IMG/VR virus record: IMGVR_UViG_3300035701_000001
DNA length: 64,000 bases
From: a virus
Direction: 5' to 3' (one strand)
Position 1 is the first letter of the stretch, and each line of letters starts with the position of its first letter. Shown one piece after another: positions 3,876 through 61,407 of the stretch. A program made the position numbers and the translations under genes. The notes under the pieces were generated by a model that saw only the letters and a program-made list of their open reading frames with translations, made no database searches and was not told where the DNA came from.

Positions 3876-5068
3876 ATGATTTTCCTCATGAGTTTCTTCC
3901 CAAGTTCTATGACTTCTCCCTTGTCATGTCCCTGGTCGAGCCATTGGTCCATCATCTCGGCCACTTCCTGGGGAGATCTTCCATTGAGCGGATTCTGGGA
4001 ACTGGAGGGCTCCGGATCTTCGTAGACGGATTCTTCGTATTCTTCGTCTACGTCTTCTGGAAATTCTCCTTCATCCGGGACAATGTCCTCTTCGGAGGTG
4101 TAGAAACCATCGTATTCTCCCTCGTCGTCATCTTCCGCGAGCGTATACTGGTCGTAGCCGAGATCGGGTTCTGGAGGAGTCTGGTTGACCATGGGCAATG
4201 CCCGTTGGTTCGGTGGGATGGGTAGGGAGGGATTCGAACGGACAGGCATGTTCATCAACTGGTTCACGGCGTTTCCGGCCTGCTGGTTTCCACCCGTCAG
4301 GATTCCTGATTGCATGGTGATTTTCAAGGCTTCGCCGAGGAGGTTCTGCCAGAAGGGCTGGTCCTGTCCCTGCTGTTGATTTTGCATCCAGGGAGGGGCT
4401 GCATTGACACCGCGCATGGCGTTGATGGCCGAGGCGGATGCGGCGATGACGTTGGTCGCCTGGCCGAACATCCGGGACATCATCTCATCCTTGTTCTTGT
4501 TTTCCTCGTAGAGGTGCTGGGTGAAATCATCCATTTCTCCCTTGTGTCCCGCCCCTTTGGAACCGGTGGGCAGGGTTCCGACGGCGACGGCTCCCCGGTA
4601 GCCTCCGAGGTAGGCCTTGTCCTTCTTTCGGACGATGCTCACCTCGATGTTTCCCTCGAAGGGGACGCCGATGGTCGCGCACAGCGATTTCATCAGGGTG
4701 ATGAACCCGCTTTTCCCATAGTCTTTCGTGTTCGGGTCGTAGGGGGAAGGACCGTAGTTTGCCGGGGGGGCGTTGTCGGGCATGACCTTGATGCGAATGA
4801 GCATCCGGTCGAGTTGGATGGGCCACCACTTCGGTTTTTTTCCGGAGACCAGGTCGTTGTAGAGTTCCGAGACATCTTCGATGTCCGGAGCTTCGGGAAG
4901 CCCGTCTTTGGTTCCACTGGCTTCGGCTTCATCGACTGCGTCGTGGTAGCTGGCGATGGCCAGTGCAGAGAGGACGGTTTCGTAGATGCGCTCGACGTCG
5001 ATTTCCTCGAATTCGAGCAGGGATTCCCATCCTCGGGCGGATGTGACGCTGGATTCCTTACGTGGCAT
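3872..5068 (-). CDS. Hypothetical acidic protein
   Basis: 398-aa ORF with strong GC3 codon bias, Q/N-rich middle and D/E-rich C-terminal part. Confidence 0.8.
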   Translation of the reverse strand: MPRKESSVTSARGWESLLEFEEIDVERIYETVLSALAIASYHDAVDEAEASGTKDGLPEAPDIEDVSELYNDLVSGKKPKWWPIQLDRMLIRIKVMPDNAPPANYGPSPYDPNTKDYGKSGFITLMKSLCATIGVPFEGNIEVSIVRKKDKAYLGGYRGAVAVGTLPTGSKGAGHKGEMDDFTQHLYEENKNKDEMMSRMFGQATNVIAASASAINAMRGVNAAPPWMQNQQQGQDQPFWQNLLGEALKITMQSGILTGGNQQAGNAVNQLMNMPVRSNPSLPIPPNQRALPMVNQTPPEPDLGYDQYTLAEDDDEGEYDGFYTSEEDIVPDEGEFPEDVDEEYEESVYEDPEPSSSQNPLNGRSPQEVAEMMDQWLDQGHDKGEVIELGKKLMRKII

Positions 5069-6101
5069 CGGGGAGAGTCTCCTGGGCGTGGGACTGGATG
5101 AGTTCGATGGCTTGTACCGGGGTGATCCAGGTCAGCCCGTGCCGTTCTGCGAATTGTTTGCGAGCTTCGACATCGGGGGGTTCGGCATAGCCGTTGTCGT
5201 AGAGGTTGCACCGGATGGCGGATGAGGCACATCCCATCATGCGGACTCCGTGTTCTTCGAGGTCTTCGAAGATTCCACGGAGCTTGGCACCTGAGGTGGG
5301 GTAGAGGTGTAGATCGTAGTTTCCTGCCGATCCTTCGATGGAGTAGCAGTAGGGGAACGGTTGTTCGACGACTCCCTTCTCATCGAGGGAGAAGTAGTGG
5401 GAGAAGACGTTTCCGAATCGGTTCTTGCGGATGGAGAGTCGTCGGAGTCCGGTCATGTCGTCGGGAATGTCGGCCAGCACGTCGACGAGGTGGCGAAGCT
5501 GGTTGGGTCCGAGAACATCTCCGTCTTTCGTGTACTGGGCGATGAAGATGCCTCGGGCTCGTGCGGCCTGGATCCGGTTGATGGCTGCCTTCATGACGTG
5601 GGTCGATTCCCAGGAGGTTGCAAGCTGGGAGATCGAGTCGACGACGATGAGGTCGTCTTTTTCGAGTCCGATGAGATCTTCTTCGAGTTCTTCCCACGTG
5701 TTGATCATGGAGAAGCGGGGGACGGGTGCCATGGGGTTGTGCTGTCCCACCACGCGGTTCCAGGAGGAGAAGACCATCTGGATCTGTTGTTCGGAGGACA
5801 TGTACCGGGTTGGGTTGGTCTTGAGCGCGATGGTCGTTTTTCCGGAGCCTGCATTTCCAGAGAGCAGGATGGTTCCTCCATGTTCGAGCTTGAGATGGGA
5901 CCAGGGGTGTGGAAGTGCCGGTGGATCTTCCAGGTCTGAGTATTTCCGGTTGGGGCGAGCCCTGCGGCTGTCGAGGTCGTTGTTGTTGCATCTTGGACAG
6001 GTGTGGACTTCTGGATCCAGGATGGGAAGCGTGCAGTTGTAACAGACCCGGTGGGGTTCGATGGCCAGGCTGTTTTGAATTTCGCTCTTATTTCCTTCCA
6101 T
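5058..6101 (-). CDS. radA: RadA/Sms-like ATPase lacking the Lon-like C-terminal domain
   Basis: Zn finger CYNC..CPRC, Walker A SGNAGSGKTT, Walker B LIVVDSISQL, TKDGDVLGPNQLRHLVD, and the RadA signature KNRFG. Confidence 0.85.
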   Translation of the reverse strand: MEGNKSEIQNSLAIEPHRVCYNCTLPILDPEVHTCPRCNNNDLDSRRARPNRKYSDLEDPPALPHPWSHLKLEHGGTILLSGNAGSGKTTIALKTNPTRYMSSEQQIQMVFSSWNRVVGQHNPMAPVPRFSMINTWEELEEDLIGLEKDDLIVVDSISQLATSWESTHVMKAAINRIQAARARGIFIAQYTKDGDVLGPNQLRHLVDVLADIPDDMTGLRRLSIRKNRFGNVFSHYFSLDEKGVVEQPFPYCYSIEGSAGNYDLHLYPTSGAKLRGIFEDLEEHGVRMMGCASSAIRCNLYDNGYAEPPDVEARKQFAERHGLTWITPVQAIELIQSHAQETLPDAT

Positions 6102-6433: not shown

Positions 6434-6862
6434 ATGTTCGATGCATGGGCAATCGCGGGCGTTGGCGGCGGATCTGCAGCGCTGACCTACCTGGCATGCG
6501 GCTGGAAGCAGACGAAGGATGGCAAGCAGTGCATGCGCCTGTCCCTGGACGAGGGCTGCAGTCTCCTGGGTGACGTCCGTCTCCTGGGCGGCATCGGCAC
6601 GGGCATCGCGTCGATGTACGTCGGAGGTGCCGACACCAAGAAGGCCCTGCAGACCGTCTGCGCGGCAAGCCTGCTTTCGCTGGTCCAGACCGAGGTCATC
6701 CGGTGGCGTCTCGCCAAGCAGGGGAACACGGGCGTGGCGGAGAAGCTCCCCATCTTCCCGTCGGTCTTCCAGAAGGCCACCGAGGGGGCCTACGGCGCGC
6801 TTCCCGGCCCGCAGGCCTCGCACTCGACCAGCCAGCGCCAGTCGGCCTGGGCTCGTCGCTGA
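6434..6862 (+). CDS. Small hydrophobic putative virion/membrane protein
   Basis: GGAGAG RBS; strong GC3 bias; Gly/Ala-rich hydrophobic segments; GAYGA near the C-terminus. Confidence 0.8.
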   Translation: MFDAWAIAGVGGGSAALTYLACGWKQTKDGKQCMRLSLDEGCSLLGDVRLLGGIGTGIASMYVGGADTKKALQTVCAASLLSLVQTEVIRWRLAKQGNTGVAEKLPIFPSVFQKATEGAYGALPGPQASHSTSQRQSAWARR

Positions 6863-6953: not shown

Positions 6954-7754
6954 ATGGAACAGTACGGAGGATTCCTCGGAATCCACACCAACCCGCAGGC
7001 ACGGCTTGCACAGATCGATGGGAAGCTCGCAATCGAACTGTCCAAGCCCTCCGGTGCCCAGCGCACCCAGAAGATCGCCCGCCTCATGGGGCTGCGTGAC
7101 AAGGTGCTCGCGAAGGTCGCCGCCCGCAAGGGCGCCGAACTCGCAGCGGCCTCCATCCCCGGCCTGGCCGGTGGACTGGCCAGCAGCGGCATCCGGGGCA
7201 TGGACGTCATCGAACACGAGTTCTCCCCCGAGGTCGTTCGCCAACACAACCTCGAAGGCGCGGCCCAGGGCCTCCGCCAGATGTCCGTCGCCCCTCCGGG
7301 CTCCGGCCGCCTGGTCCCGATCCCCTTCGTCACGTCCGCGAGCACGGTCCCCGTTCACGTCGTGACGGGTGGCGGTGGTGCGCTCGGTGCCGCAGTGGGC
7401 AACCTGCAGACCGAACCGGTGAACTGGGCGGTGCTTCGCATCGTCGCGCTCACCACGCAGACCATCGCGGCGGCCACGGGCGTCGTCGGCGTCATGCAGG
7501 ACTTCAAGATCGGAGGCAGCCCCAACCTGTTCCTCTCCGAGAACTGGGTCCTGATGGACGACTACGACACCGACAAGGAGCAGTTCGCAGGGCTCCGCGC
7601 GTACCCGGTCCTCATCAGCCCGAACATCGCCTACGTCACGACCAACACGTGGGCCCCAGCGGGTCAGAACCTGTACTACGCCGTCAGCCTCGTGACCGAG
7701 GTTCTCCGCGACGACGCCTTCGGACCGGGCCTTCCCGGCGGATACGCGCGGTAG
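6954..7754 (+). CDS. Candidate major capsid protein (single-jelly-roll-like, beta-rich C-terminal domain)
   Basis: AGAGGAC RBS, extreme codon bias, flanking hairpins; about 140-aa alternating-hydrophobic beta domain; clear paralog at 55866-56645; fold is inferred, not searched. Confidence 0.55.
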   Translation: MEQYGGFLGIHTNPQARLAQIDGKLAIELSKPSGAQRTQKIARLMGLRDKVLAKVAARKGAELAAASIPGLAGGLASSGIRGMDVIEHEFSPEVVRQHNLEGAAQGLRQMSVAPPGSGRLVPIPFVTSASTVPVHVVTGGGGALGAAVGNLQTEPVNWAVLRIVALTTQTIAAATGVVGVMQDFKIGGSPNLFLSENWVLMDDYDTDKEQFAGLRAYPVLISPNIAYVTTNTWAPAGQNLYYAVSLVTEVLRDDAFGPGLPGGYAR

Positions 7755-9207: not shown

Positions 9208-10338
9208 ATGATCCATCCGTATTTCAACCTCACGGGCGACGAGGCCAGGGGGCTGTTGTACGGGCTGCTCGAAGTGGACAAGATCCAGTTGAAGGCGAAT
9301 CCTTCGATGCCTTCGATCCGGAAGTTGATTCAGGAAGGCAGTATTCGTTACGAGCGGTCGGATCCTCAGGAACACTGGCAGTCCTACCGGGAACTCGTCG
9401 AACAGGTCCAGCAGGGCGGGGTCGGGTACGGGGATTGCGAGGACTTCGCCCCGGCAATTGCAGCCGAGGATCAGGTTCGACGTGGATTGAAATCAATTCC
9501 TGTGGCGTATACCCCTAAAGAAGGACTGTTTCACGTGGTGACAGCGGTTCCGACTTCGGGGGCGTCCTATGGAGTCACCCGGTTTCCAGACGCCCTCGGG
9601 GCTCCCAGGATGTCTGGGTATGTCCTCGAAGATCCTTCGGCAGCCGCAGGGATGGAAACCTTTGGGAGTACCGGGGTTCGTGGCAAGTCGGTGGGAGAGG
9701 CGAGGGAGCGGTTTGGTGGGATGCGGGAATTCCGGGAATTTTACGGAATAAAGGATGGTTCTTCCAAGTACACTCCTTCTCGTATCCTGGTCGAATCCGC
9801 GATGGGGCTTGCCGCCATCGAGGCGGAGGACTTTGGAAGGGCCGAGGAACTGGCCCGGAAGGTCTCCTCGATGCTCCGTGACATCCGAAAGCGCATGCCA
9901 GGCTATGACATCGATCCGGATACGCAGGAATTGCTGGAATGGTACGCCGATTTGTCGAGGGGTGAGGACACGGGGTACGAAGTCGAGTTTCCCGAGGATT
10001 CTGGTTTTGGAGCGATGGACAGGGGGGGAGAAACCCTGCGGGTGGATGCCGAATACCGGGATCGGTTGCGTCGACTGGGGGGGCAGGGGACCTGGTCTAC
10101 ACCCGTTGTCTCGATGTACTTTCGGGTTCGCAGGACAGTCCGTATCGGGCAGGGGTGTTTGATCCCCTCGTCTCTCTTGGACTTCCCTGTTCGTTCCGTG
10201 AAACCGGCTCCGAGTTCTATCGAGGAATTCGCTGGTTGTTACGGTTCTCTTTCGCTGTTTGGAGATCCGTTGCGGGACATCGAGGAACTCGATGACCTGG
10301 AACTCATGGATGAACCTGGAGTTTTTGAAGAGGATTGA
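9208..10338 (+). CDS. Transglutaminase-fold cysteine protease, candidate virion maturation protease
   Basis: GDCEDFA (Cys), FHVVTAV (His), LEDPS (Asp) in papain-like triad order; sits inside the structural cluster. Confidence 0.7.
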   Translation: MIHPYFNLTGDEARGLLYGLLEVDKIQLKANPSMPSIRKLIQEGSIRYERSDPQEHWQSYRELVEQVQQGGVGYGDCEDFAPAIAAEDQVRRGLKSIPVAYTPKEGLFHVVTAVPTSGASYGVTRFPDALGAPRMSGYVLEDPSAAAGMETFGSTGVRGKSVGEARERFGGMREFREFYGIKDGSSKYTPSRILVESAMGLAAIEAEDFGRAEELARKVSSMLRDIRKRMPGYDIDPDTQELLEWYADLSRGEDTGYEVEFPEDSGFGAMDRGGETLRVDAEYRDRLRRLGGQGTWSTPVVSMYFRVRRTVRIGQGCLIPSSLLDFPVRSVKPAPSSIEEFAGCYGSLSLFGDPLRDIEELDDLELMDEPGVFEED

Positions 10339-12761: not shown

Positions 12762-12998
12762 ATGAACGGAGCGATCCGCTGCGTGGATGCCCACGGCAAC
12801 CCGATGGACTTCTGTCCGGTCGGGGTGCCAGGGGCTGCAGGGGATCGCTCCGGGGTCCGTCCCGGTTTCACCACGTTTGGTGGCTATTCTCCTGACCCTC
12901 TCCGGGATCGTGGGTACGAGTACAACAAGGCCGGGTATCTGCAGGGTAGCTACGATTCCTGGCGTGCACAGTTCCAGCGGTGGAGAAACCCACGATGA
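12762..12998 (+). CDS. Small hypothetical protein of the structural cluster
   Basis: 78 aa; fills the gap between coupled neighbours; ATGA overlap with the next gene. Confidence 0.65.
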   Translation: MNGAIRCVDAHGNPMDFCPVGVPGAAGDRSGVRPGFTTFGGYSPDPLRDRGYEYNKAGYLQGSYDSWRAQFQRWRNPR

Positions 12999-14473
12999 GC
13001 CCGAAGCTTGACGATGTAGATGAGTTCGACATCTCGAAGGAAACCCTGTACGTAGGGGATCCAGACGAGAGCGAAGACGAGGACGAAGAGGAAGACAAGG
13101 ACAAAGCCTTGCTGGAAGCTTTGTTCAGTGATTCCTCTGACCCTTCGGCTGACGATTCCTTGGACGAGGAGATCGACTCTGCCCTGTCGGACGAGTCCCC
13201 TACACAGAGACTGTGGGAGTTTCCGGACGAATCCCTCAACGTTCAATCATTTGAACACCAGGAGACCCGCAAGCCCAAGGTGAGTCGCCGTGCATTTGCT
13301 TCCGATGCTCGCCGTTCGATGGACGTTTCCCATGAGGAATCCTATGGGCTCGGCTACGAGTCGGGCTACGTGCAGGCCCTGAAGGATATGGGCGTCGAAG
13401 GGGATACCCTATGGGATGCCTACGGCGGACTCGTGAAGAAGGGCATCCAGGGAGCAGGTGGTATCTTCTCCTCGGCAGCCCGTGGGTTCCTCGGGACCAC
13501 TCCCAAGGAAGCTGCGAAGGAACTTCGTGGAGAAGTCGGCAAGGAACTCCAGGGACAGATCCGCAAGCAACTCGGTGTGGCTGGCAAGCCGACCCAGATG
13601 GCCGAAGAATTGGGCAAGCAGTTGCGCCAGCAGGCCCTTGGGGTTGTCGAGGCGGATGAGTCGACACTTCCCCCCGTGTACGTGGAGGACAAGGAGGGGT
13701 TCGAGGAGGACCTGGCACTCGATGAAGGGTCCGAACCCATCGAACTGGACGACAGCCTTCTGGTCCAGGAAGAGTTCGGGGCGACGGCGAAGCACGGGTT
13801 CTTTGCGAGTCAGCCCCGGCATCGCATCCGGGAAGCTGCGAAGAAAGCGATGATCGGTGGGCAGGCATCTCTCAAGACGGCCACTCCGTCGGGTCCTGCT
13901 CCTTTCGTCGAGGATCCCGAGGCGGCTCCGAAGCTCTACTCGACCGGTCGGATCGTGGATGCGGTCTACGGGGAGATGAGCCTGGTCCCGTGTCCGTCCT
14001 GCAGCCGGATCCCCGAGAAGTTTGCTGGGATGGGCAAAGCCGAGAACTGTCTGGTCTGCACGCAGTACGGGGCCATCCTGATTCCGAAGTCCGACATCAG
14101 CCACTACGTGGCTTCGACGAGCTACGGTATCTTGCCTTTGCTCGTGGCAGCGGTTTCCTCAGCCACCCCGAAGATCATGGAACAGGCTTCGAAGGGAAAG
14201 CTTTTCCCGAAGGCCATGGCCAAGCTGAAGACCTGGCTGTCCGGCAAGAAGGCCAAGACCGAGGCACTTCCCTCTGATTCCAGTATCGATCTCGATCTGG
14301 ACAAGGAGAGCGAGGAAGAGTCCGAGACGGATCCCTATGACATCTCTGGAGTCGAAGAGATGTTCGGTGGAGTCGAGGAAGAACCAGAAGAGGACGTCGA
14401 GGAACAGGATCTTCCGGAGGAGTATGGGGTCGTCCGTGCTCTCGTTCCGAGTCGGTACCGGTTCAACCGGTAG
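12995..14473 (+). CDS. Acidic modular virion protein with CxxC..CxxC and a pX-like peptide
   Basis: D/E-rich ends; eight [YF]G sites; CPSC..CLVC; SYGILPLLVAAVSS. Confidence 0.8.
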   Translation: MSPKLDDVDEFDISKETLYVGDPDESEDEDEEEDKDKALLEALFSDSSDPSADDSLDEEIDSALSDESPTQRLWEFPDESLNVQSFEHQETRKPKVSRRAFASDARRSMDVSHEESYGLGYESGYVQALKDMGVEGDTLWDAYGGLVKKGIQGAGGIFSSAARGFLGTTPKEAAKELRGEVGKELQGQIRKQLGVAGKPTQMAEELGKQLRQQALGVVEADESTLPPVYVEDKEGFEEDLALDEGSEPIELDDSLLVQEEFGATAKHGFFASQPRHRIREAAKKAMIGGQASLKTATPSGPAPFVEDPEAAPKLYSTGRIVDAVYGEMSLVPCPSCSRIPEKFAGMGKAENCLVCTQYGAILIPKSDISHYVASTSYGILPLLVAAVSSATPKIMEQASKGKLFPKAMAKLKTWLSGKKAKTEALPSDSSIDLDLDKESEEESETDPYDISGVEEMFGGVEEEPEEDVEEQDLPEEYGVVRALVPSRYRFNR

Positions 14474-15693: not shown

Positions 15694-16722
15694 ATGGCCA
15701 CACAACCTCCGTACAACGCCTTCGACGACATCTTCGACGACGAGAACCTGAATCTCGATCTCGAATTGGAGGACATCGACACGGACTCCCCGTACTACGG
15801 TGCCGGAGACGACGATGATCTTCCCGCACTCGAAGCCGAGGTGGATGCCGAGACGTTCGGACAGGAATCGGAGATCGAGTCTCCGGAAGACATCGAGTGG
15901 GCTTCCACCCCGTGGAGTCTGCCCGAGGCCGAAGAGACCTCCGAGGAGCAGTCCCAGTTCGCGGAGCCGATGGCCCAGGGCAACGTCGAGGATCTCTTCG
16001 AACTCGGCAACGTGCTGCTGCCGACCGCCTACCAGGACGGAACCCTCGAAACCCTCGTGAAGTGGGCGACGAGTTCGTTCGGTGGGGACGATGCGCGCGG
16101 TATCGTGACTGCCATGCAGGACATGAAGAACCCCTCGCTCGCGGACTGGAAGTCCATGAACGAGTCCCAGCGCGAGACGTTCGTGATGGACGCCATCAAG
16201 CGCGCGGCGATTCCCGGAATCCCGTTCCGTTCCTGGGACAAGCTCCAGGATGCCTGGAACCAGGGGAACGGACCCATCAACACCGCCTGGAAGCTCGTCA
16301 CGACCACACCGTCCGCGCTGTGGAGCCTCGTGTCTCGTGACTTCCCGACGCTGACCGCCGCCTGGATCGACGAGGTCATGCCGATTCCCGGTGTGGAACT
16401 GACCCGGCACGAGGTCCTGAACCAGAAGGCCATGTTCTACTGGTTCCTGGAGATGCTCGGCTACGACGTCGTCAAGGGAATCGCAGCCCAGATGACCGTG
16501 TACTTCGATCAGTACGGCTATCCCACCCCGGTGGGCGAGCAGGCCTTCGAGGTCCCGTCGACCGAGGTCGAGGTCGAGGAAGGGGGCGAAGCGTTCTTCC
16601 CCGGTCCCGCGATGGAGATCGCACCGCCCAGGGCCGAGTCGGTCCTTCCGCGTCCGCAGACCATCCTCGCGTTCGGATACGGGCTCATGATCGCCGGGTC
16701 GCTCACGGGCCTGATCAAGTAG
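15694..16722 (+). CDS. Putative abundant virion membrane protein (C-terminal TM helix)
   Basis: AGAGGACACC RBS; extreme codon bias; acidic N-terminus; C-terminal ILAFGYGLMIAGSLTGLI. Confidence 0.8.
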   Translation: MATQPPYNAFDDIFDDENLNLDLELEDIDTDSPYYGAGDDDDLPALEAEVDAETFGQESEIESPEDIEWASTPWSLPEAEETSEEQSQFAEPMAQGNVEDLFELGNVLLPTAYQDGTLETLVKWATSSFGGDDARGIVTAMQDMKNPSLADWKSMNESQRETFVMDAIKRAAIPGIPFRSWDKLQDAWNQGNGPINTAWKLVTTTPSALWSLVSRDFPTLTAAWIDEVMPIPGVELTRHEVLNQKAMFYWFLEMLGYDVVKGIAAQMTVYFDQYGYPTPVGEQAFEVPSTEVEVEEGGEAFFPGPAMEIAPPRAESVLPRPQTILAFGYGLMIAGSLTGLIK

Positions 16723-17570: not shown

Positions 17571-17594
17571 ATTTCCCCGTAGAGGACATTGACC

Positions 17595-18773
17595 ATGGCG
17601 AAGTACAGGGACCTGAGTGAATACGGTGGGATGATGCCGACACGGAGTTCGGCGGGGTTCATCCGCCGGTCGGGGATCCCGGAGATCCGTGGGGTTTCCC
17701 CCACTCCGTCTTTTCCTGACGATCCCCGTCTGAGGGGGTTGACCCCCGAACAGCTTCGCGGATCCCCTCTTCCCGATTCGACTACCCTTGCGGGCCGTGC
17801 CTACTCGGTGATGACGCCGGATCCGTACGCCGAAGTGGTCCGCCGGGAACTGGAGATCGGCAGGCGGTTGCCGAGGCCGTACCAGGCTCCGACGGCTCTG
17901 GCAGGCAGGCGGCTCATGCCGACCGAGTACTACGAATCGAACTACCAGCCACTCGACTCCGAGCGTGCCATCTATCCGGCTGCGGACATCGCAGGACGGC
18001 GTTCGACGCTTTCGGGGACCTTCGGCCAGGACATCGCCCAACCGATGCCGTGGTCTGCCCGAGAGCAGATGGGGTATACCGAGTCCCGGTCTCGGGGTCC
18101 CGGTCTCTCCAGCGAGTGGGACACACAAGCTCACCGGGAACGCATGTCGGGCAAGGTCTCTGCTCCAGGGACCTTTTCCCAGAGGGTGGATCCTCGGTAT
18201 CCGTTCTTCCATGTCATGGCGAAGGGAGATGGGACGGGTCTTCCGGAAGGGTATGCCTCTGCGGGAAATGCACGGGTCAAGGTGACGGTGGGTCGGTTCG
18301 AGACGGGGGGTGCGACGACCAGCCGGGAGTTCTACGTCGGAGGAGGGTTTACCGGGTTCTTCGATCTGCAGGGATGGGATCAACTGACCTTCGAGGTGGT
18401 CTACATCTCCCCCGGAACGGTCGTGGAGTTTTCCTGGACCACCACGGCGATTCAGGCGGGGAACAAGACCCTGTACTACCTCGAAGTACTGCACAATGGT
18501 GTAGGAAGTATCCAGCCTGTTCCCGAGGGAGCCTATTCGGTGATCGTCAACAAGATGGTGGGCTGGACTTCTGGATCGTTTTCCTGGTGGACGGACATCG
18601 GGGGTATTCCTACTTCTCTCATCATTCGGTTTGATGATGGAACCACAGGGTTGGTAAACCAGTTTGGAACACCGATTCCCGTGGCTGGAACGATGTATGC
18701 CCCTCCGGTCATCGTCGGGGGGGGGGTGGCTGGGCAGGACGTACCTGTCCTGTGGAATCTCCGTCCGATCTAG
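17595..18773 (+). CDS. Putative minor capsid/vertex protein (P/R-rich N-half, beta-rich C-half)
   Basis: AGAGGAC RBS; SEYGG near the N-terminus; about 190-aa aromatic beta-strand-rich C-terminal domain. Confidence 0.7.
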   Translation: MAKYRDLSEYGGMMPTRSSAGFIRRSGIPEIRGVSPTPSFPDDPRLRGLTPEQLRGSPLPDSTTLAGRAYSVMTPDPYAEVVRRELEIGRRLPRPYQAPTALAGRRLMPTEYYESNYQPLDSERAIYPAADIAGRRSTLSGTFGQDIAQPMPWSAREQMGYTESRSRGPGLSSEWDTQAHRERMSGKVSAPGTFSQRVDPRYPFFHVMAKGDGTGLPEGYASAGNARVKVTVGRFETGGATTSREFYVGGGFTGFFDLQGWDQLTFEVVYISPGTVVEFSWTTTAIQAGNKTLYYLEVLHNGVGSIQPVPEGAYSVIVNKMVGWTSGSFSWWTDIGGIPTSLIIRFDDGTTGLVNQFGTPIPVAGTMYAPPVIVGGGVAGQDVPVLWNLRPI

Positions 18774-24965: not shown

Positions 24966-25967
24966 ATGCCGAAAGCCGAGAAGAACATCGAGACGACCGA
25001 GGTCAAGGAGCCCGTCGAGGTCAAGGAACCCGTCGAGGTCCAGGACAACGACATGTTCGGGATCGACGTCGAGGTTTCCGACCCCGCGTTCGGAAGCATC
25101 TACCCCATCGTCCAGTGGGTCAACGGGGATCGCACGAAGAAGAAGTCCGAGGACATCGACTACACGGGTGGCTTCTTCGTCTCCGCCGAGCAGGGCATCG
25201 AGATCCCCGGCGCGCACCCCTACAAGCTCATGACCCAGGAAGGCCAGGAGGTCGATGGGTTCGCGATCCGCGATCTCGTCCTCCACCCCCTGCGCTACCG
25301 CCGGTCCTGGATCTGCCTGCCCAAGGAAGGTGGGCTGCAGATGCGCTTCCCGTGGGATGCCTACGAGGATGCCAAGGAACACGACTGCAAGAACTCGCCG
25401 CGTGGACGCGGTCAGCTTCTCGCGGTCATCGAAGGCATGAACCAGCCCGTCTGCCTGACGTTCTCGGGCATGGTCTCCGCCCACGTCTTCTCCCGTGGCA
25501 AGGACCGGGGCGTGCTCTCCAACTACGGCCAGGTCATCGTCGGCAGGGCGCGGGCACTGGCCCGCCGCAAGGGACGCGACATCGAGTACCCGCTCTGCGC
25601 GTTCAAGCTCTCCATGGGCCCCGAGCGCAACGCGGAAGGTCCGGTCTTCACGAAGGTCGGCCAGGGCACCGCGACCAACTACGTCGTCTACCCGGTGTGG
25701 CTCGACAAGCCCGCTGGCATCCCCGGCGAGGACCACATCGGTCGCCTGTTCGCGGGTCGCGAACTCTTCGCGAAGCTCCAGGACTGGCACCGCGAGGCGG
25801 ACGAGTGGGTCGCGCAGTGGTCGACCAAGGCGCTGATCGAGCAGCTCAAGACCTTCCTCACCAACAAGTCCAGCCTGGCCGAGAGCCTCAAGGGCATGGG
25901 CACGAGCGAAGGCGAGACGGCGGCCGAGGGCGAGGGCCTTCCGGGCGAGCGCGAGGTCCCGTTCTAG
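24966..25967 (+). CDS. Putative single-stranded DNA-binding / recombination protein
   Basis: AAGGA RBS; extreme codon bias; acidic C-tail ending EREVPF like bacterial SSB (DIPF); next to nrdJ. Confidence 0.55.
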   Translation: MPKAEKNIETTEVKEPVEVKEPVEVQDNDMFGIDVEVSDPAFGSIYPIVQWVNGDRTKKKSEDIDYTGGFFVSAEQGIEIPGAHPYKLMTQEGQEVDGFAIRDLVLHPLRYRRSWICLPKEGGLQMRFPWDAYEDAKEHDCKNSPRGRGQLLAVIEGMNQPVCLTFSGMVSAHVFSRGKDRGVLSNYGQVIVGRARALARRKGRDIEYPLCAFKLSMGPERNAEGPVFTKVGQGTATNYVVYPVWLDKPAGIPGEDHIGRLFAGRELFAKLQDWHREADEWVAQWSTKALIEQLKTFLTNKSSLAESLKGMGTSEGETAAEGEGLPGEREVPF

Positions 25968-39600: not shown

Positions 39601-40748
39601 TCGGGTCTGTTGCCTTGGCAGTGGTTGGGCTTGCTCTCGGTTCGGATGCAGAAGGAGCCGGGACGACCCCTGAACCATACGTGACTGTTTATTCCTGGGC
39701 GGACGGGACTCAGATCGTTCGAATCACGGCAGTGGACGATGCATTCTACGAAGAAAAGCTTCAGGTATTTACGGGAATGTCTGTCGAATTGATCCGGATG
39801 GTCCTTGGATTTCCGTATGAAACGGTCTTTTTGTACTTTGATTCTGATTCGAATCCACGATTCCTTCTTTTTGGAAGTGTGAGATACGGGGTTAATTCTA
39901 CGGAATTAGGTGTGAGAGATATTTTTGATGTGATTCGTTTTTTCTCGGTCGATCAGCAGATGCCATCTGGGCTGGAACGGGCTCGTATCTATGAGTTTCT
40001 TGGCTGGATTGACCAGGGAATCGAAAAAGTCTCCCTGGATGTTCTTGCACTGTATCTGCTTGGAGTTGCAGCGGTTTCTCTTCATTTTCCCAAGAGAGAC
40101 GAGGAAATACGGAAGCAATCCCGGTTGAAGAGGCGGGTGGTTGCCCTGCTGGCACAGGAACAATCCTCTTTTTCAAATGAGACGGACGTTCGGATGGCTT
40201 TGCGGGATCTATTGGAGACGGCAGGGATTCTCACCGCGAAAACTATGTCAGACAAGTATGTTTCCAGGGTTTGCGAGAGGGGATTTTATCGCTTCGATTG
40301 CCATGACAACTTCCTGATCGGATCCGAGGAAGGGGTTGCCGTTGTTGAGTATGACAAGCGGATGTACATGGGGGACGGGGCGGGTTATGTCTCCGATCAT
40401 TTCCGAATCACGACGGCCTGGGAGAACGACGGTCTTCTCTGGAAGGTCACCCATCATCAGAACGAGGGTCCTGGAGTTCTTCTTTCAACTTCTACAAAAG
40501 GTCCCTACGATGCGTTGTTTCAAACAGATCGATTCTTTTGTGCTGGTGTTCCTTCCAACCTTTCCTATCCGGAATTGGTGAAGGCACGGAGATCCGCCAA
40601 GATGGATGTACTCTCCTCCCTGGCTTCTTCGGATGGCGTTCCATTGAAAGGATGCATGATTCCGCAGATGATCCAGAATCCGAATCCTGCGTTGGCTTTG
40701 CTTCCCAAGTTCTTGCAACAGTATGGGACTAGAGCGGCCGGAACTTGA
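39597..40748 (+). CDS. Hypothetical exported protein (lower GC)
   Basis: MIGSVALAVVGLALGSDAEG signal-like N-terminus; more A/T-ending codons than its neighbours. Confidence 0.75.
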   Translation: MIGSVALAVVGLALGSDAEGAGTTPEPYVTVYSWADGTQIVRITAVDDAFYEEKLQVFTGMSVELIRMVLGFPYETVFLYFDSDSNPRFLLFGSVRYGVNSTELGVRDIFDVIRFFSVDQQMPSGLERARIYEFLGWIDQGIEKVSLDVLALYLLGVAAVSLHFPKRDEEIRKQSRLKRRVVALLAQEQSSFSNETDVRMALRDLLETAGILTAKTMSDKYVSRVCERGFYRFDCHDNFLIGSEEGVAVVEYDKRMYMGDGAGYVSDHFRITTAWENDGLLWKVTHHQNEGPGVLLSTSTKGPYDALFQTDRFFCAGVPSNLSYPELVKARRSAKMDVLSSLASSDGVPLKGCMIPQMIQNPNPALALLPKFLQQYGTRAAGT

Positions 40749-41547
40749 CCTGTCCGTCCCAGTACAGCCGGTACATCCCGTTGGTTTCCAGCGTGACTTT
40801 TGCACCGGTAAGCGGGCTTTCATTCCACAGGATTGTGTAGGTCCCGGCAGGCACGGCCCCCGGTTTGACTGTTCCATCTGGTCCAGAGAGCCCGATGCGC
40901 GGGTCATCGGTTTCCCAGGTGGCGAGGGAAGGTCCACACTCGAAGAAGGAACTCACCCAGTCGAAGAATCCCGGCTCTTCTTCCTCGATGACGGGTTTGG
41001 GGGTCGGTTTTTCGACCGATGGACGTGTGGGTCCCGAGGTCGAGAACAGGGAAGCAGGCAGGACGTCCCGAGGATCTACGAAGGGTTGGCTCGGATTCAC
41101 GTACAGGCATGTGGCCAGGTGGAGGTGGGGACCGGTCGTGTGTCCGGTCATTCCAACGATCCCGATCTGCTCTCCTCGTGCAATGGGAGTTCCACTGTAG
41201 GATTTCGTCTTGTAGCCCTTCATGAGTTTCGAGGAGAACGCATTCATGTGGCAGTAGATGTAGTGCAGACCGGATGTATTTCCCTGGATGGTCACGGATC
41301 GTCCGGCCAATGGAGAATCCCAGGTTATCCAGCGGACGGTACCTTCCTCCACGTTGAAGATGGGGTCTCCGACGGAAGCCGCCAGATCGATGGCTCCATG
41401 CATCTTGCCGGTGGTACGGTAGAACTCGCTCACGACGCGGAGGGGTGGGTTGGACAGGGGGGAGGCTACCTTGTCGGGCAGTTTGAGGTCCACGGGGAAC
41501 GTGGTCTTGTCCCAGTGATACGCTTCAACGGTCTTTGATAGGGACAT
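40729..41547 (-). CDS. M23-family peptidoglycan endopeptidase
   Basis: HGAIDLAA (HxxxD), IYCHM, GMTGHTTGPHLHL (HxH). Confidence 0.9.
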   Translation of the reverse strand: MSLSKTVEAYHWDKTTFPVDLKLPDKVASPLSNPPLRVVSEFYRTTGKMHGAIDLAASVGDPIFNVEEGTVRWITWDSPLAGRSVTIQGNTSGLHYIYCHMNAFSSKLMKGYKTKSYSGTPIARGEQIGIVGMTGHTTGPHLHLATCLYVNPSQPFVDPRDVLPASLFSTSGPTRPSVEKPTPKPVIEEEEPGFFDWVSSFFECGPSLATWETDDPRIGLSGPDGTVKPGAVPAGTYTILWNESPLTGAKVTLETNGMYRLYWDGQVKFRPL

Positions 41548-41560: not shown

Positions 41561-42409
41561 CTAGAGGGGTTTGAACTTGACCGTGGATCCTTCCCGTACG
41601 GCCCGGTAGCTCTTGCCCCCTTCGAACTGGACCGTTGCACCAGGGACCGTCTTGCCATCCCAGACGAGGGAGTAGGTGCCCGAAGGGACGGTACCAGGTG
41701 AAATTTTTCCGTTCGGACCTGCAAGTCCGATGCGGCGATCCTCGGAAGTCCAGGTCGAGGTCTGGGGTTCGGAGGTGAAGAAGGAAGCTACCCAGTCGAA
41801 AAACCCGTTTTCTTCTTCTGCATCGGGCGCGGGAAGCGGAGTTCCGGCACGGGGAGCCAAGGGGGTCGTCACGAAGTCGGGGAACAGCCGGACCGCAAGC
41901 TTGCGCCTGCGGGTATCTTTTTCGGCGTTGTATTGGGGGCGTTCGACGTAGCACAGGAAACCGGCGGTGAGGTGTCCGACTTCACGGACACCTCGATCGT
42001 GGGCATCCAGTGGATGCTCGATGGCATAGGCAGGGACGCAGCCTGGCTTTTTCTTGCGGGTCGAGAAGAGTTCCTTCAGGATGATCTGCGTGTTGGTGAC
42101 GGGATCCTTGCGTTCCTCGACGGTCATCCCGGCTCCGGCTGCGCCAGGGGCTCCGTGAAGCTGGAAGAGTCCAACTGAGTCGTACCCGGATTTTTCCCGG
42201 TAGATTGCGCCGGGTTCGAGGTTCGATTCCCCCATGGCGTTGGCCACCATGGCCATTGCGACAGCAGGGGGGACCTTGTAGTTCTGGGCCTCCTCTTCGA
42301 TGATCTCGACCATGTCTCGTTGCGAGGTATTCAACACCCCTCGGGGAATGTACCGGGAGATGGGGTAGGCAGCCTCGGGAATCGCGCTGTATCGTTCGGA
42401 GGGGTTCAT
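41561..42409 (-). CDS. Lysozyme/lytic-transglycosylase-like muralytic enzyme
   Basis: AMVANAMGESNLEPGA..SVGLFQL (catalytic ES and GLFQ motifs). Confidence 0.75.
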   Translation of the reverse strand: MNPSERYSAIPEAAYPISRYIPRGVLNTSQRDMVEIIEEEAQNYKVPPAVAMAMVANAMGESNLEPGAIYREKSGYDSVGLFQLHGAPGAAGAGMTVEERKDPVTNTQIILKELFSTRKKKPGCVPAYAIEHPLDAHDRGVREVGHLTAGFLCYVERPQYNAEKDTRRRKLAVRLFPDFVTTPLAPRAGTPLPAPDAEEENGFFDWVASFFTSEPQTSTWTSEDRRIGLAGPNGKISPGTVPSGTYSLVWDGKTVPGATVQFEGGKSYRAVREGSTVKFKPL

Positions 42410-54466: not shown

Positions 54467-54563
54467 GATCACCACGAAGAACACGAAGAACACGAAGGAT
54501 CGGACCGGCCGAACTCCGCGTCCTCTGCGGTGGAAAAGAACGAGGGAATCACTACGGAGGATC
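54467..54563. repeat. Dispersed 9-mer-based repeat element, copy B
   Basis: GATCACCACGAAGAACACGAAGAACACGAAGGATCGGAC..AACTCCGCGT..GCGGTGGAAAAGAACGAG, near-identical to copy A; between convergent genes. Confidence 0.85.
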
Positions 54564-55329
54564 AGTAGTTCTGCAGCAGGAAGTCCAGGTCCGTGTGGAA
54601 CGACATGCGGGGGGTCGTGTCCTCGATCCATTCCGAGTAGCTGTAGTAGGTGCTGGGGGAGTCCCGGAACAGGACGAGTCGGACGGCTCCCATCTGGTGC
54701 AGGGCCTCGACGATCAGGGTTGGGTTGAAGAAGGAGTTTTTGTCTACCTTGATTTCCTTTGGATTTTTTCGTTCTTCCCTACGGAATTCCGAGGTGTTCT
54801 CCCACTCGATCCGATGGATGATCTTGCCGAGTTTGTCCAGGAACTTCTTGGCGTTCACGATGGCATCGTAGGTGTCGATGTCTTCCAGATGGGGTTCGAG
54901 GTATCGAGTGGCGTCGTACCAGTAGGGGGATCCGGATTCCCTGCGTTCCGGGGTGTATTCCTGGAAGGACAACTGGAACCTTCCCAGGTGCTCCGAACCG
55001 TAGTGCGAGGTGCTGTAGTGGAAGTCGGTGCCGAGATCCAACATCTTTTGGTAGAACGCCCTCCACTTCAGGTTCGTCTCCTCGTTCGAGGAGATTTCTC
55101 CTGGTTTGAACGTTTTTTCCAGGTATTCCTGGTTGGAATGCTCCTGGACGGCAAACAATCGGATTCTAAGTGTGGTGTATCCACCCGAGGAGGTTTCCCG
55201 GTCGAGGACGTATCCCTGGAGCTTGTCTTTTCTTGCGGTTTTCCGCTTTCTCTTTGCATGGGTCTTGGCAGTCGTCTCCGAAGAGGCGGTCGCGAACCCG
55301 AGGGCAAGGATGGCCAGGGTCTCGATCAT
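54562..55329 (-). CDS. Hypothetical exported protein
   Basis: MIETLAILALGFATASSE followed by a basic stretch. Confidence 0.8.
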   Translation of the reverse strand: MIETLAILALGFATASSETTAKTHAKRKRKTARKDKLQGYVLDRETSSGGYTTLRIRLFAVQEHSNQEYLEKTFKPGEISSNEETNLKWRAFYQKMLDLGTDFHYSTSHYGSEHLGRFQLSFQEYTPERRESGSPYWYDATRYLEPHLEDIDTYDAIVNAKKFLDKLGKIIHRIEWENTSEFRREERKNPKEIKVDKNSFFNPTLIVEALHQMGAVRLVLFRDSPSTYYSYSEWIEDTTPRMSFHTDLDFLLQNY

Positions 55330-55778
55330 GGGGTCTGCTCTCGAATGGCCTGGAATTCTTGTTCCAGATCCACACCGGGAAGCACGAAGAGGTACTCGAT
55401 GCCGCTGTGCACGAGAAACCAGGCTGTCGATCCGCTCGGCAGAACTGTCTCTCGGTATTGGATGGAGTCATAGCGGGGGAACTCCGAAATATCCTCCTGG
55501 GTGAATCCCGGAACGTAGGAGAAGTGCTTCTCCCAGTCCGTAACAGAGATGATCTGGATGTCATGGCCCCGTTTGGGCGGTGGAGGCAGGGTGGAGAGGT
55601 CAACGAGAGAAGCAAACGCATCGACGTCGAGCGTTCGATTCACGTGGTCGTAGAGCCACCGTACGACTTCGGCAGGACCGAGGGGGCATGCCCAGACGTA
55701 GTGGGCACGGGTAGGTTCCGAAGCGTCCGCCAGGGTCGCGAGGAGCAGGCTCATGGCAGGGACGATTCCGAGGACCAT
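55326..55778 (-). CDS. Hypothetical exported protein
   Basis: MVLGIVPAMSLLLATLADASE; coupled to 54562-55329. Confidence 0.75.
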   Translation of the reverse strand: MVLGIVPAMSLLLATLADASEPTRAHYVWACPLGPAEVVRWLYDHVNRTLDVDAFASLVDLSTLPPPPKRGHDIQIISVTDWEKHFSYVPGFTQEDISEFPRYDSIQYRETVLPSGSTAWFLVHSGIEYLFVLPGVDLEQEFQAIREQTP

Positions 55779-55865
55779 GGGTCTCCTTTATCTTGTTTCT
55801 CTGTACCGCGCGTGGACTTGGCTTTGTCGATTCGGGTGATTATCCTGGGTGTCCAGGGAGGTCGC

Positions 55866-56645
55866 ATGTCAGAACCAGGTTCGGGCTCGGTGCGGGGGTT
55901 GTTTCGTCAGTGGGCTCGGAAGATGCTCGGTACGGTGGTGAACGAAACCATCGATCGATTGCTCGAAGTGAGCGTGGAACTCGGTGAATCCGATGGGTCT
56001 CTCGCAGAGGGAGACGAAGGAGATCTGGATCTCGACGGATCCATGGAACAGGACGAGGCATCGAACCGACTTGTGCCTCGGTCTCCTCCTTTCGCGTTGC
56101 GCCGTTTGCCCCCCAAGGGGGAACGTTGGACTCCTCCTGTCGAAGGGGAGAAGCGTGAGTTCCGGTTTCTTCCTTTCTGCATCGAAGGCGGAGAGGAGAA
56201 CGTCCCTCTCGCTGGATGTGGAACCGAAGAGGTCCAGATTCAGTCCATGACATTGCGCTGTGCAAACCTTCCGACGGGCTGGATCCAGATCGTTGGATTC
56301 CGTGCTCTTCTTTCCTCGGATCCGACCGTCAAGGCCTTCGTGAAGGCGCTGCGTGTCGGAACGGAGGGGGACTCCCTTTTCCTCGCAAAAGGGTGGACGG
56401 ATCTCTCGGAGTTCGTCCGCAACCCGAACGGGATCGAGGGCCTTCCTCGGCTGCGTCGGTTCCCGACTCTCTATGTGAAGGACGGAGTCGTATCGGGGGG
56501 AGGCAATTTCGATGCGGTCTATGTGGATGCCTTCGCGTGGGGAGAAGGCCAGGCGCTGTGTCGCATGGATCTCGTCGTGGAGATCTTGGATTCGTCCATC
56601 GAGTCGGAGCCGCCTTTGCCTTCTTGGGAAGGAGAGAACCTGTAG
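55866..56645 (+). CDS. Divergent paralog of the capsid candidate (second jelly-roll-like protein)
   Basis: GGAGG RBS; C-terminal 150 aa align colinearly by eye with 6954-7754. Confidence 0.7.
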   Translation: MSEPGSGSVRGLFRQWARKMLGTVVNETIDRLLEVSVELGESDGSLAEGDEGDLDLDGSMEQDEASNRLVPRSPPFALRRLPPKGERWTPPVEGEKREFRFLPFCIEGGEENVPLAGCGTEEVQIQSMTLRCANLPTGWIQIVGFRALLSSDPTVKAFVKALRVGTEGDSLFLAKGWTDLSEFVRNPNGIEGLPRLRRFPTLYVKDGVVSGGGNFDAVYVDAFAWGEGQALCRMDLVVEILDSSIESEPPLPSWEGENL

Positions 56646-56652: not shown

Positions 56653-57252
56653 TCATCTCCTCTGGAAGGTCTCGTGGACAGCCACCTGTGCGACCCGGTC
56701 CATCCAGCCGTAGGCCTCGGATACTTCGGATTCGAGAGAGGACAGCCCTGCTTCTTCTGAGGATTCCTCGGCAGTCGTCACCTCGGACTCCAGTCCTTCG
56801 AGGTCATCGGTCTCGGTTCCTTGTTCGGAGGCCGTCACCTCGGACTCCAGTCCTTCGAAATCCGAAAAGTCCAGGTCGGCTTCTTCGTCGGTCCCTGTAC
56901 TGGGAGAGGGAGTTCCCGTGGGCCTCGTGAGGGAGGTTCCCGGATGGGAGGGGCCAGGTGGTGTCGAACGACCTTTGCTCGGATCTTTTCCATGGAGGTC
57001 GTGCTTCTTCTTTTTCTTCTTTTTCTTGTCTTCCTTTTTCTTGATCCCGAGCAGGCTGCGCGCTCCTTCCTGGGCTTTTTCACGCCCTTCTTTCGTACTC
57101 AGGACGGCTGCTGCGATGGGAATCAGGAGAGGGAGGAATCCGTAGCCCTCGTCGGTCATCTGCTGAGTCACTTGTTCCGCGATGGCTCTGGAATCTGGCC
57201 GTTCGGGCAGGTTGTAGAGCGTCGAATAGCCGTATTTCCAGAGTCTGGGCAT
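56653..57252 (-). CDS. Putative virion protein with pX-like peptide, poly-Lys tract and acidic repeats
   Basis: AGAGGACACC RBS identical to gene 15694; GYGFLPLLIPIAAAVL; KKKEDKKKKKKKK; EGLESEVT repeats. Confidence 0.8.
   Translation of the reverse strand: MPRLWKYGYSTLYNLPERPDSRAIAEQVTQQMTDEGYGFLPLLIPIAAAVLSTKEGREKAQEGARSLLGIKKKEDKKKKKKKKHDLHGKDPSKGRSTPPGPSHPGTSLTRPTGTPSPSTGTDEEADLDFSDFEGLESEVTASEQGTETDDLEGLESEVTTAEESSEEAGLSSLESEVSEAYGWMDRVAQVAVHETFQRR
56777..56858 (-). repeat. 25-bp direct repeat, period 57 (EGLESEVT)
   Basis: GTCACCTCGGACTCCAGTCCTTCGA at 56777-56801 and 56834-56858. Confidence 0.9.
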
Positions 57253-60558: not shown

Positions 60559-61035
60559 TCATCCATTCCCTCTGTTTTTCCTCTTCTGTTTCCTACGAAA
60601 TTCCATCTCTGAAATCGTAGCTTCTTTGTGGGCTTCTTCGTATGGTTTTCCTTCTCGGATCATGACCTCTGTTTCCATGTGTTCGTGGTATGCAATGGCA
60701 GCCACATCCTTGGGATCTCCCTCTTCGACCCAGATTTCTCCCTTTGGAACGTAACGGTATCGGGCTGGGTTACCGCCCAGGCAGAAGTTCACGTCCACCT
60801 CGTCTCGAATCACCCCGCCGTTTACGGACCAAACGGTGTATTTACCTGTCATTCCCACTTTTCGACGGTGGATTCTCTGGAGGAGCTTCGAAGGAAGAGG
60901 AGAAGTTCGTTCTCCCGGACTGGGGGGTGTGATGGGGTATTTTTTGCCGTTTTTCTTCGGATGGATTCTGTTTGGGTTTCCAACCCACCAGGTGAATCCT
61001 CCAAGTGTCGCCAACAGTGCCAGTAGTTCGAACAT
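60559..61035 (-). CDS. Membrane-anchored phage-type protein
   Basis: MFELLALLATLGGFTWWVG anchor; C-terminal YHEHME..YEEAH motif. Confidence 0.75.
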   Translation of the reverse strand: MFELLALLATLGGFTWWVGNPNRIHPKKNGKKYPITPPSPGERTSPLPSKLLQRIHRRKVGMTGKYTVWSVNGGVIRDEVDVNFCLGGNPARYRYVPKGEIWVEEGDPKDVAAIAYHEHMETEVMIREGKPYEEAHKEATISEMEFRRKQKRKNRGNG

Positions 61036-61037
61036 TC

Positions 61038-61334
61038 CTAGTTTCCGCGCTTGTGCATTTTCTTTTCAGATTCTTCCAAAATCGAATAATAATCGTCGTA
61101 TTCTGCGAGGTGGTCCAGAGCGATTTCCTGTGCCAACCGCCGATTGGAGGCTTTGTCTCCGGTCCGGATGTGTTCACGCTCGTGGCGGATGCCTTTGCTG
61201 AGTTCCACCGGGTCCACGTCCTTCAGACGGAGGGTATCCCCTCGTCCCCCTTTCAGACGATTTTCCAGTCGATCCTGCCCGACAAGCCAGGCAAATCCAC
61301 CGAGGACTCCAACGAGGGCCAACAGTTCGAACAT
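61038..61334 (-). CDS. Membrane-anchored DUF5661-like protein
   Basis: MFELLALVGVLGGFAWLVG anchor; GGRGD..ELSKGIRHEREH..AQEIALDHLAEYDDYYSIL. Confidence 0.75.
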   Translation of the reverse strand: MFELLALVGVLGGFAWLVGQDRLENRLKGGRGDTLRLKDVDPVELSKGIRHEREHIRTGDKASNRRLAQEIALDHLAEYDDYYSILEESEKKMHKRGN

Positions 61335-61407
61335 GGGGTCCCCCTGAGCTTCTGCGGAGAACCTAACCCGCTCCAAACGCGTTAGGTTGTCCAAGCTGGA
61401 GGATGCG

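Follow-up and report, generated by a model that had tools for sequence, protein, structure and literature searches.

The subject of this report is a gene, B, at positions 55866 to 56645 of a 64,000-nt stretch of viral DNA (hereafter the window) that belongs to a 204.5-kb contig, IMG/VR record IMGVR_UViG_3300035701_000001. Also inside the window, some 48 kb from B, is gene A (6954 to 7754), and profile comparisons indicate that the C-terminal domains of the 2 encoded proteins, both of which are predicted to be jelly rolls, descend from a common ancestor. For the observations as a whole, the best explanation that we can offer, and one to which we give about an even chance, is that B is an accessory, lineage-restricted jelly-roll copy and is not the obligate partner of A in a two-capsid-protein system. 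We base this reading on the average codon usage of B, its lone position, its fast divergence, its lack of the N-terminal arm and C-terminal tail that characterize the A family, and the lack of a B counterpart in a small relative of the element, the 13.5-kb contig L010 described below.

An initial annotation of the window, made from the letters alone, had proposed that 55866-56645 encodes a divergent paralog of the protein encoded at 6954. The coordinates were exact, and the homology was demonstrated by comparison of profile against profile. BLASTP of B against A was borderline (E 0.033, 26% identity over 74 residues), and hhalign of the A-family profile against B alone gave P 0.0028 and a probability of 11%, which is insignificant given the many open reading frames (ORFs) open to comparison. 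Profiles of the 2 families, constructed from 27 sequences out of 64 homolog clusters for A and from 5 sequences for B, aligned with a probability of 97.7% (E 1.5e-12) over 128 colinear columns. Thus the HHalign comparison that the annotation had suggested as a check, once run, was significant, and each of the 6 motif pairs it had listed was aligned partner to partner. In a control experiment, plain hidden Markov models of both families were searched against 1607 six-frame ORFs from the window and the related loci. The B profile retrieved A at E 9e-10 and the A profile retrieved the B homolog of contig L007 at E 2.7e-8; the best unrelated ORF among the 1607 scored E 0.2 or worse, and no third paralog was detected in the window. 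The L007 homolog also matched A directly by BLASTP (E 1.9e-6), and several of the B homologs resemble A more than B itself does, in that they have SPNLF, GWA and LRAYP motifs.

The sequence similarity that confirms common ancestry of the 2 putative jelly rolls is confined to the C-terminal domains, where B keeps the core motifs PF, (N/S)LF..GW and LR.(Y/F)P in the same order as A. The A-type family, which we found in at least 64 metagenomic clusters, is recognized by the motifs PPGSGRL, GGSPNLFL, GLRAYP and DDAFGPGLPG-Y. The first and the last of these, an N-terminal arm and a C-terminal tail, respectively, are kept even in distant members (P0061-P0064), and are absent from B and from all 4 of its homologs. 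Every member of the B family has a basic amphipathic helix in its N-terminal region, followed by an acidic linker. Within what is an undescribed jelly-roll family, B and its 4 homologs form a subfamily of their own, which is much smaller than that of A and evolves faster.

That B is a real gene on the plus strand is evident from its ribosome-binding site (RBS), its coding score and its homologs. The reading frame starts with ATG at 55866 and is closed by a TAG that ends at 56645. An exhaustive HMMER search of 1.84 billion representatives yielded 4 remote homologs, with E values from 1.8e-18 to 1.3e-4, in which the entire length of B is conserved, the first 35 residues included. The log-odds codon score of B was 0.233 per codon, as compared to 0.239 for gene A and 0.103 for the frame antisense to B. 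One could suppose that the B frame is a by-product of base composition or of an antisense gene, since the antisense frame is also open over ~260 codons, and since the B ORF formally reaches upstream to 55170, antisense to the minus-strand genes 54562-55329 and 55326-55778. However, the antisense frame has the appearance of a classical shadow frame, with an Arg/His/Ser-rich translation and no listed ORF of at least 60 amino acids from an ATG, GTG or TTG start, and the upstream extension of B, itself a shadow frame, has a coding score of approximately zero (0.02-0.05 per codon vs 0.197 for the minus-strand gene). With homologs at E values down to 1.8e-18 that are conserved over their full length, a codon score twice that of the antisense frame, a strong RBS and a confidently predicted beta-domain, the supposition that B is not a gene is effectively refuted, and we regard its likelihood as negligible.

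We used AlphaFold2 to predict the structures of both proteins. The A model, from a 27-row alignment, had a mean predicted local distance difference test score (pLDDT) of 68.7, with helices between residues 14 and 104 and a beta-domain from 120 to 253; the B model, from 5 rows, had a beta-domain from 95 to 243 with block-mean pLDDT mostly in the range of 76-90. In Foldseek searches of the Protein Data Bank (PDB), most of the top matches of either model were jelly-roll capsid proteins (E 2e-3 to 3e-2), from luteovirus, tymovirus, infectious bursal disease virus (VP2), satellite tobacco mosaic virus, picornavirus, SH1, HCIV-1 and HHIV-2, and there was also the cement chain of cyanophage Pam1. We also compared the models to 48,161 chains with VIA-align, and observed 2 chains at or near the top for both: 1stm_A, the satellite panicum mosaic virus coat protein (for A, Z 7.5 and root-mean-square deviation 4.0 over 122 aligned residues; for B, Z 7.0 and 3.8 over 118), and 6h82_b of HHIV-2 (Z 7.1 for A and 6.7 for B), which was tied with unrelated jelly rolls. 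For B, the coat proteins of SPV1, satellite tobacco mosaic virus and nanovirus came next, and a search of BFVD with the B model gave 36 matches at E 1e-3 or better, of which those with names were mostly capsid proteins. A fold search of the ESM Atlas with the A model returned weak rows, the best of them a 190-amino-acid cluster labelled Uroviricota that carries no family name. By these criteria the models place A and B, with moderate confidence, in the jelly-roll beta-sandwich fold class, an assignment of class and not of function. The annotation's expectation of a single jelly roll common to both proteins is borne out to the same degree, in that both Foldseek and VIA rank viral jelly-roll capsid proteins highest, with middling scores. 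A prediction of a complex between the beta-domains of A and B scored 0.21 against a mark of 0.32; it was run without controls and counts neither way.

B is a lone plus-strand gene between minus-strand genes; 87 bp separate it from 55326-55778, and 7 bp separate it from the stop codon of 56653-57252. Genes for thymidylate synthase and a nucleotide kinase are a few kb upstream, and the immediate neighbours of B matched no known family in Pfam and PHROG scans. The codon usage of B is unexceptional, with a G+C content at third codon positions (GC3) of 0.650, which ranks 47th of 70 genes, and an effective number of codons (ENC) of 44.9 as compared to a median of 46.6. The corresponding values for A are 0.861 (rank 2 of 70) and 32.6, so that the weaker codon bias ascribed earlier to B is confirmed. 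A 16.5-kb contig, L004, is syntenic with the 45.5-63 kb segment of the window, including a HicA-fusion gene, and has at the same place a B homolog of 253 amino acids that is 31% identical to B, within a range of 23-57% for the neighbouring genes. The samples from which L004 and its sister contigs derive also yielded an A ortholog of the type found in contig L012, which is 73% identical to A. If L004 and the L012-type A belong to one element, then B evolves far faster than A.

Gene A gives quite a different picture. Its product is 62% identical to its ortholog in L003, a 385-kb contig, where neighbouring genes are 31-45% identical, and 73% identical to that in L012 (103.6 kb), where neighbours are 26-56% identical; in L011 (106 kb) A is 42% identical, level with the ATPase encoded next to it. 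The GC3 values ranked third and fourth of the 70 are those of the small gene immediately 5' of A (6434-6862) and of 15694-16722. As the best conserved protein of its block, with a codon bias near the top of the window, A behaves like a major structural protein. In L003, L010, L011 and L012, without exception, the gene for the ATPase (5058-6101 in the window) forms a divergent pair with the A operon; in the gene map of contig L038, a gene of 346 amino acids takes the ATPase position. Besides its RadA/Sms-like relationship, the ATPase of the window matches Sak4-like and KaiC families but no viral packaging ATPase family, and it is without a Lon domain; its function may be in recombination, or it may be a ring translocase that has been recruited to package the genome. 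When A, B and their neighbours were scanned against Pfam, PHROG and NCBIfam, a family could be named only for this ATPase among A, B and the proteins of the A block; there was no match for A itself or for the protease-like protein 9208-10338, and the A profile had no relevant match among PDB sequences. ESM Atlas look-ups of the low-confidence models for 7904-9172 and 17589-18773 gave nothing usable.

The contig L010 (Logan ERR14789959_7901, 1-13500), which encodes an integrase and a Rep-like protein, carries a compact counterpart of the A block. We observed in it a divergent Zn-ribbon RecA-fold ATPase 34% identical to that of the window (E 4e-37), an A-like protein of 479 amino acids (E 1.6e-18) with a small protein encoded directly 5' of its gene, a Cys-protease-like protein of 113 amino acids that is 40% identical to the N-terminal domain of 9208-10338, and a beta-rich protein of 188 amino acids that resembles the C-terminus of 17589-18773 (E 2.7e-4). 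There is no B-like ORF in L010, which has one family member only. The largest ORFs of L010 are 480, 364, 342 and 335 amino acids long, and the contig, if complete, could not accommodate terminase, portal and HK97 capsid genes; also, none of its 10 scanned genes, which flank the A-like gene and include that for the Rep-like protein, had a structural or packaging match in PHROGs. L010 starts and ends within the same 22-bp tandem repeat. The presence of the A block in an integrase-bearing contig of this size fits a morphogenesis module of a tailless virus, and L010 is a candidate for a small, temperate, tailless virus related to the giant elements.

The presumed origin of double jelly-roll capsid proteins is the duplication, divergence and fusion of capsid genes. 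One member of the family described here, P0065 (L009:7964-9133), is a protein of 389 amino acids with 2 tandem A-type jelly-roll domains; hhalign recognized the N-terminal one with a probability of 87% (E 4e-6) and the C-terminal one with 99.1% (E 1.4e-18), and an (R)DDAF motif ends each domain. As judged from its sequence, P0065 may be a case in which single jelly rolls have fused naturally to give a double one. Its gene is a lone one, on the plus strand, among HD, NUDIX and MazG-like genes.

The element as a whole, at ~204 kb, encodes a DnaE-type polymerase, ribonucleotide reductase, thymidylate synthase and peptidoglycan hydrolases, and such gene content at this size is usual for huge tailed phages (PMC7162821). 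Among the window proteins scanned against Pfam, PHROGs and NCBIfam, we found no HK97, terminase, portal or tail family, although divergent ones can escape profiles; more specifically, no window ORF of at least 390 amino acids matched a terminase, portal, capsid, sheath or tail family in PHROGs or Pfam. Members of the A family were similarly elusive in existing collections. There was no match by tblastn of A, B, P0063 and P0065 to 50,697 GenBank phage records, motif-based scans detected no relative in IMG/VR viral contigs or GTDB species genomes, and a word-indexed homolog search with a mixed A/B alignment returned only the known A members and B. We found no account of such a lineage in the literature.

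Coordinates of genes A and B, of their parts and of genes of the A block are collected in Table 1.

Table 1. Positions in the window of genes A and B, their parts and genes of the A block.
Feature	Position	Strand	Evidence
Zn-ribbon and RadA/Sms-like RecA-fold ATPase with KNRFG motif	5058..6101	-	TIGR00416, E 1.2e-8; PDB RadA 5lkm, E 1.7e-5
Hydrophobic small protein, 142 amino acids, directly 5' of A	6434..6862	+	2 hydrophobic segments; orthologs of 38-56% identity
Gene A, 266 amino acids: N-terminal basic helices, conserved Gly-rich linker, C-terminal predicted jelly roll	6954..7754	+	64 homolog clusters; AlphaFold2
Predicted jelly-roll domain of A, residues ~118-253, homologous to B	7305..7712	+	hhalign columns 121-256 of A profile; model strands 120-253
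Cys-protease-like protein of A block	9208..10338	+	40% identical to 113-amino-acid gene product of L010; 41-58% to L003, L011, L012
RBS of gene B, GGGAGG, 4 nt 5' of ATG	55856..55861	+	Read from sequence
Gene B, 259 amino acids, divergent paralog of predicted jelly-roll fold	55866..56645	+	ORF; coding score; 4 remote homologs; syntenic ortholog in L004
N-terminal basic amphipathic helix of B, residues ~8-37	55887..55976	+	Kept across B homologs in alignment; AlphaFold2 helix 9-37, low pLDDT
Acidic linker of B, predicted disordered, residues ~38-94	55977..56147	+	pLDDT <50; Asp/Glu-rich in all B homologs
Predicted single jelly-roll beta-sandwich domain of B, residues 95-243	56148..56594	+	AlphaFold2; Foldseek; VIA; hhalign to A domain

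Several other features of the 2 regions were recorded. The minus-strand gene 56653-57252, which is convergent with B, has the same AGAGGACACC-ATG RBS context as A (6954) and 15694; it encodes a hydrophobic FLPLLIPIAAAVL peptide, a poly-Lys tract and acidic repeats, and had no homolog elsewhere in the window by BLASTP. We considered 55.8-59.6 kb as a possible duplicated structural mini-cluster, and found this idea unsupported beyond B: in an all-against-all BLASTP of the window proteins, no paralog pair besides B linked the neighbourhood of B to the A block. Small adjacent minus-strand genes at 60559-61035 and 61038-61376 are alike in the first ~31 residues of their products (52% identity, E 2.8e-6). 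Another adjacent minus-strand pair, 40729-41547 and 41561-42409, is alike at the C-terminus, where a common module is 41% identical over 138 residues (E 2.6e-26), and within this pair only the M23-type peptidase gene matched endolysin and peptidase families. Scans for sigma-70 promoters around A and B were negative.

With respect to the A region, the highest GC3 of the window, 0.910, belongs to the plus-strand gene 24966-25967 (333 amino acids), which is directly 5' of the gene for the ribonucleotide reductase large subunit and has no PHROG match. The Ig-like protein encoded after A (7904-9172) also has diverged copies, as L012:644-1975, which lies 5' of the block, encodes a 443-amino-acid paralog of it (26% identity, E 5e-20). 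In 7 contigs of 47-385 kb from different samples (the window, L003, L011, L012, L016, L027 and L038), A is located ~0-7.3 kb from a contig end, and the window starts inside a 26-nt repeat (1-26 and 122-147; there are also repeats at 157-173 and 223-239). The recurrent location of A near contig ends suggests that the genome physically ends there, or that assemblies break at a repeat region.

We propose the following scheme for the 2 genes. A would be a jelly-roll protein that is abundant and evolves slowly. Its gene is central to a conserved block, which also holds genes for the Zn-ribbon RadA-like ATPase, a small membrane protein, the Cys protease and a beta-rich protein, and the most likely role of A would be that of major virion shell protein. 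The conservation and codon bias of A, the occurrence of the block in L010 and the absence of the family from the phage and virus collections searched argue for A as the shell protein of a module of the tailless-virus type, an assignment that we consider somewhat better than an even bet. B would have lost the PPGSGRL arm and the DDAFGPGLPG-Y tail of A, which are probably lattice-forming extensions, and gained its own helix and acidic linker; it would be expressed at ordinary levels, from its own site among mostly uncharacterised genes. The product would then be a low-copy protein associated with the virion or with its assembly, whose jelly roll could dock onto A-type surfaces and whose amphipathic helix could bind a membrane or another partner.

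A broader and more tentative reading, which we hold as possible and rather less than evenly balanced, is that A-type proteins are the major capsid proteins of an unrecognised lineage of tailless bacterial viruses, with elements that range from an integrase-bearing one of 13.5 kb to those of 100-385 kb. The core module of this lineage would be the RadA-like Zn-ribbon ATPase, the small membrane protein, the jelly-roll capsid protein, the Cys protease and a beta-rich, vertex-like protein, and B together with P0065 would show duplication, divergence and fusion of a capsid gene still in progress.

Several points weigh against our interpretation. The principal one is that the size and gene content of the element are typical of huge tailed phages, and HK97 capsid, terminase and portal genes may exist in the other ~140 kb of the contig. 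A and B are known from their genes, and the capsid role of A and any place of B in a virion are putative. The structural matches are middling, with all Z values <8 and Foldseek E values of 2e-3 to 1e-2; similar scores were obtained for cellular GOLD, PHM and furin P-domains, and the fold also occurs in cement proteins of tailed phages (7eel_H, 7dou_4) and in baseplate and fibre parts. The B model is built from 5 sequences. L010, which begins and ends inside its 22-bp repeat, may be incomplete. Finally, to set 31% identity for B against 73% for A is to take L004 and L012 as parts of one relative, for which shared samples are not proof.

The foremost of these points leads to a different account of the element, as an ordinary tailed huge phage whose HK97, terminase and portal genes are beyond the window or too divergent to be detected. 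A would then be an abundant jelly-roll accessory, for instance a fibre knob or a protein that cements or decorates the capsid, and B a paralogous accessory or host-binding protein. The ~204-kb size and the genes for the DnaE-type polymerase, ribonucleotide reductase, thymidylate synthase and peptidoglycan hydrolases are as expected for such a phage (cf. PMC7162821), jelly-roll cement proteins are among the structural matches (Pam1 7eel_H, Z 6.3; Helicobacter phage KHP40 7dou_4, Z 5.6), and the ESM Atlas shape closest to A is the Uroviricota-labelled cluster. Yet the larger ORFs of the window are without a match to tailed-phage structural or packaging families, no A-family member turned up in the GenBank phages searched by tblastn or the IMG/VR viral contigs scanned for motifs, and the same block occurs in a 13.5-kb contig that, if complete, is too small to include terminase, portal and HK97 capsid genes. 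Moreover, A is more conserved than every one of its neighbours in the comparisons with L003 and L012, which would be unusual for a decoration protein or a fibre knob. On balance we consider this account somewhat unlikely. Were it correct, A and B would represent a new family of jelly-roll accessory proteins, a result of modest interest.

Our proposal must also be set against 2 other roles for B. A and B could be the large and small capsid proteins of a P23-77/SH1-type (Helvetiavirae-like) virion, with mixed capsomers in which B is the minor component. Such an arrangement would agree with the presence of 2 paralogous jelly-roll proteins in one genome, with the HHIV-2, SH1 and HCIV-1 chains among the structural matches of both models, and with the membrane-anchored proteins and protease of the A block in a window where no tailed-phage hallmark was detected. 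It appears improbable to us, however, in view of the 48-kb distance between the genes and their separate expression signals, the average codon usage of B where that of a stoichiometric partner should track A, the single family member in L010 despite the same block, the RadA-like rather than FtsK/HerA-like nature of the neighbouring ATPase, the lack in B of the arm and tail motifs that A shares with distant relatives, and the failure of the profile search of PDB sequences to find a sphaerolipovirus capsid protein. Alternatively, B could be exapted for a function outside the virion, in or on the infected cell, for example as an assembly regulator or decoy, or as a factor for superinfection exclusion or ligand binding. 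B is isolated and separately oriented among non-structural or uncharacterised genes, a few kb from genes of nucleotide metabolism; it diverges fast and has its own N-terminal helix and acidic linker, and P0065 is likewise encoded by a lone gene. We nevertheless judge exaptation unlikely, as no functional motif or partner was identified for B, and the AGAGGACACC-type RBS of the adjacent gene 56653-57252, which resembles those of A and 15694, hints at late or structural co-expression nearby.

The layout described here, with one strongly conserved copy that appears to be highly expressed, in a conserved gene block, and one distant, fast-evolving accessory copy elsewhere, is unlike that of sphaerolipovirus pairs. 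If A is a capsid protein, the system would be new in several respects: the shell of bacterial elements of 100-385 kb would be of the jelly-roll and not the HK97 type, a RadA-like ATPase would take the usual position of the packaging ATPase, and a relative of 13.5 kb would have the same module; also, B and the tandem P0065 would make the step from single to double jelly roll directly testable. The wider lead is therefore the jelly-roll-centred module that is common to elements of 13.5 kb and of 100-385 kb, with a tandem relative that has 2 jelly rolls.

Among known systems, paralogous single jelly-roll proteins in one genome are found in viruses of the sphaerolipovirus type, and in Sphaerolipoviridae and Matsushitaviridae the 2 capsid genes are side by side, after a packaging ATPase of the FtsK/HerA type. 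The initial annotation took the A/B pair as a hallmark of P23-77- and SH1-type viruses, a view that our observations do not support. As in P23-77 (VP16/VP17) and in SH1, HHIV-2 and HCIV-1 (VP4/VP7), there are 2 paralogous proteins in one genome, each of which is modelled, with middling match scores, as a single jelly roll, and A and B find some of their better structural matches in the capsid chains of HHIV-2, SH1 and HCIV-1. In contrast to those viruses, the 2 genes are not adjacent here, the ATPase by A is RadA/Sms-like instead of FtsK/HerA (A32-like), and the element is ~204 kb in size where P23-77/SH1-type genomes are 16-31 kb. Also, B is a lone plus-strand gene with ordinary expression signals that is without the arm and tail of the A family, L010 is without a B-like gene, and the A profile found no sphaerolipovirus capsid protein among PDB sequences. 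Since the likeness extends to the fold, and not to gene adjacency or the type of ATPase, B should not be classed as the second capsid protein of a sphaerolipovirus-type virus, although it may function like a minor capsid protein.

The best fold matches overall, for A and B alike, are the coat proteins of small RNA and ssDNA viruses (satellite panicum mosaic virus, satellite tobacco mosaic virus, tymoviruses and nanoviruses). A and its long relatives resemble many of these in having a basic N-terminal arm before the jelly roll, whereas the N-terminal region of B, an amphipathic helix and an acidic linker, is unlike such an arm. There is no sequence relationship to the small-virus proteins, and the element described here is a large dsDNA replicon. 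The cement proteins of tailed phages, such as those of cyanophage Pam1 (7eel_H) and Helicobacter phage KHP40 (7dou_4), accompany an HK97-fold capsid gene, none of which was detected among the scanned proteins of the window or L010. Their beta-domains are of similar size (Z 5.6-6.3), and they are accessory to a main shell protein, as we propose for B; as judged from the models, they are an equally close structural analogue of B.

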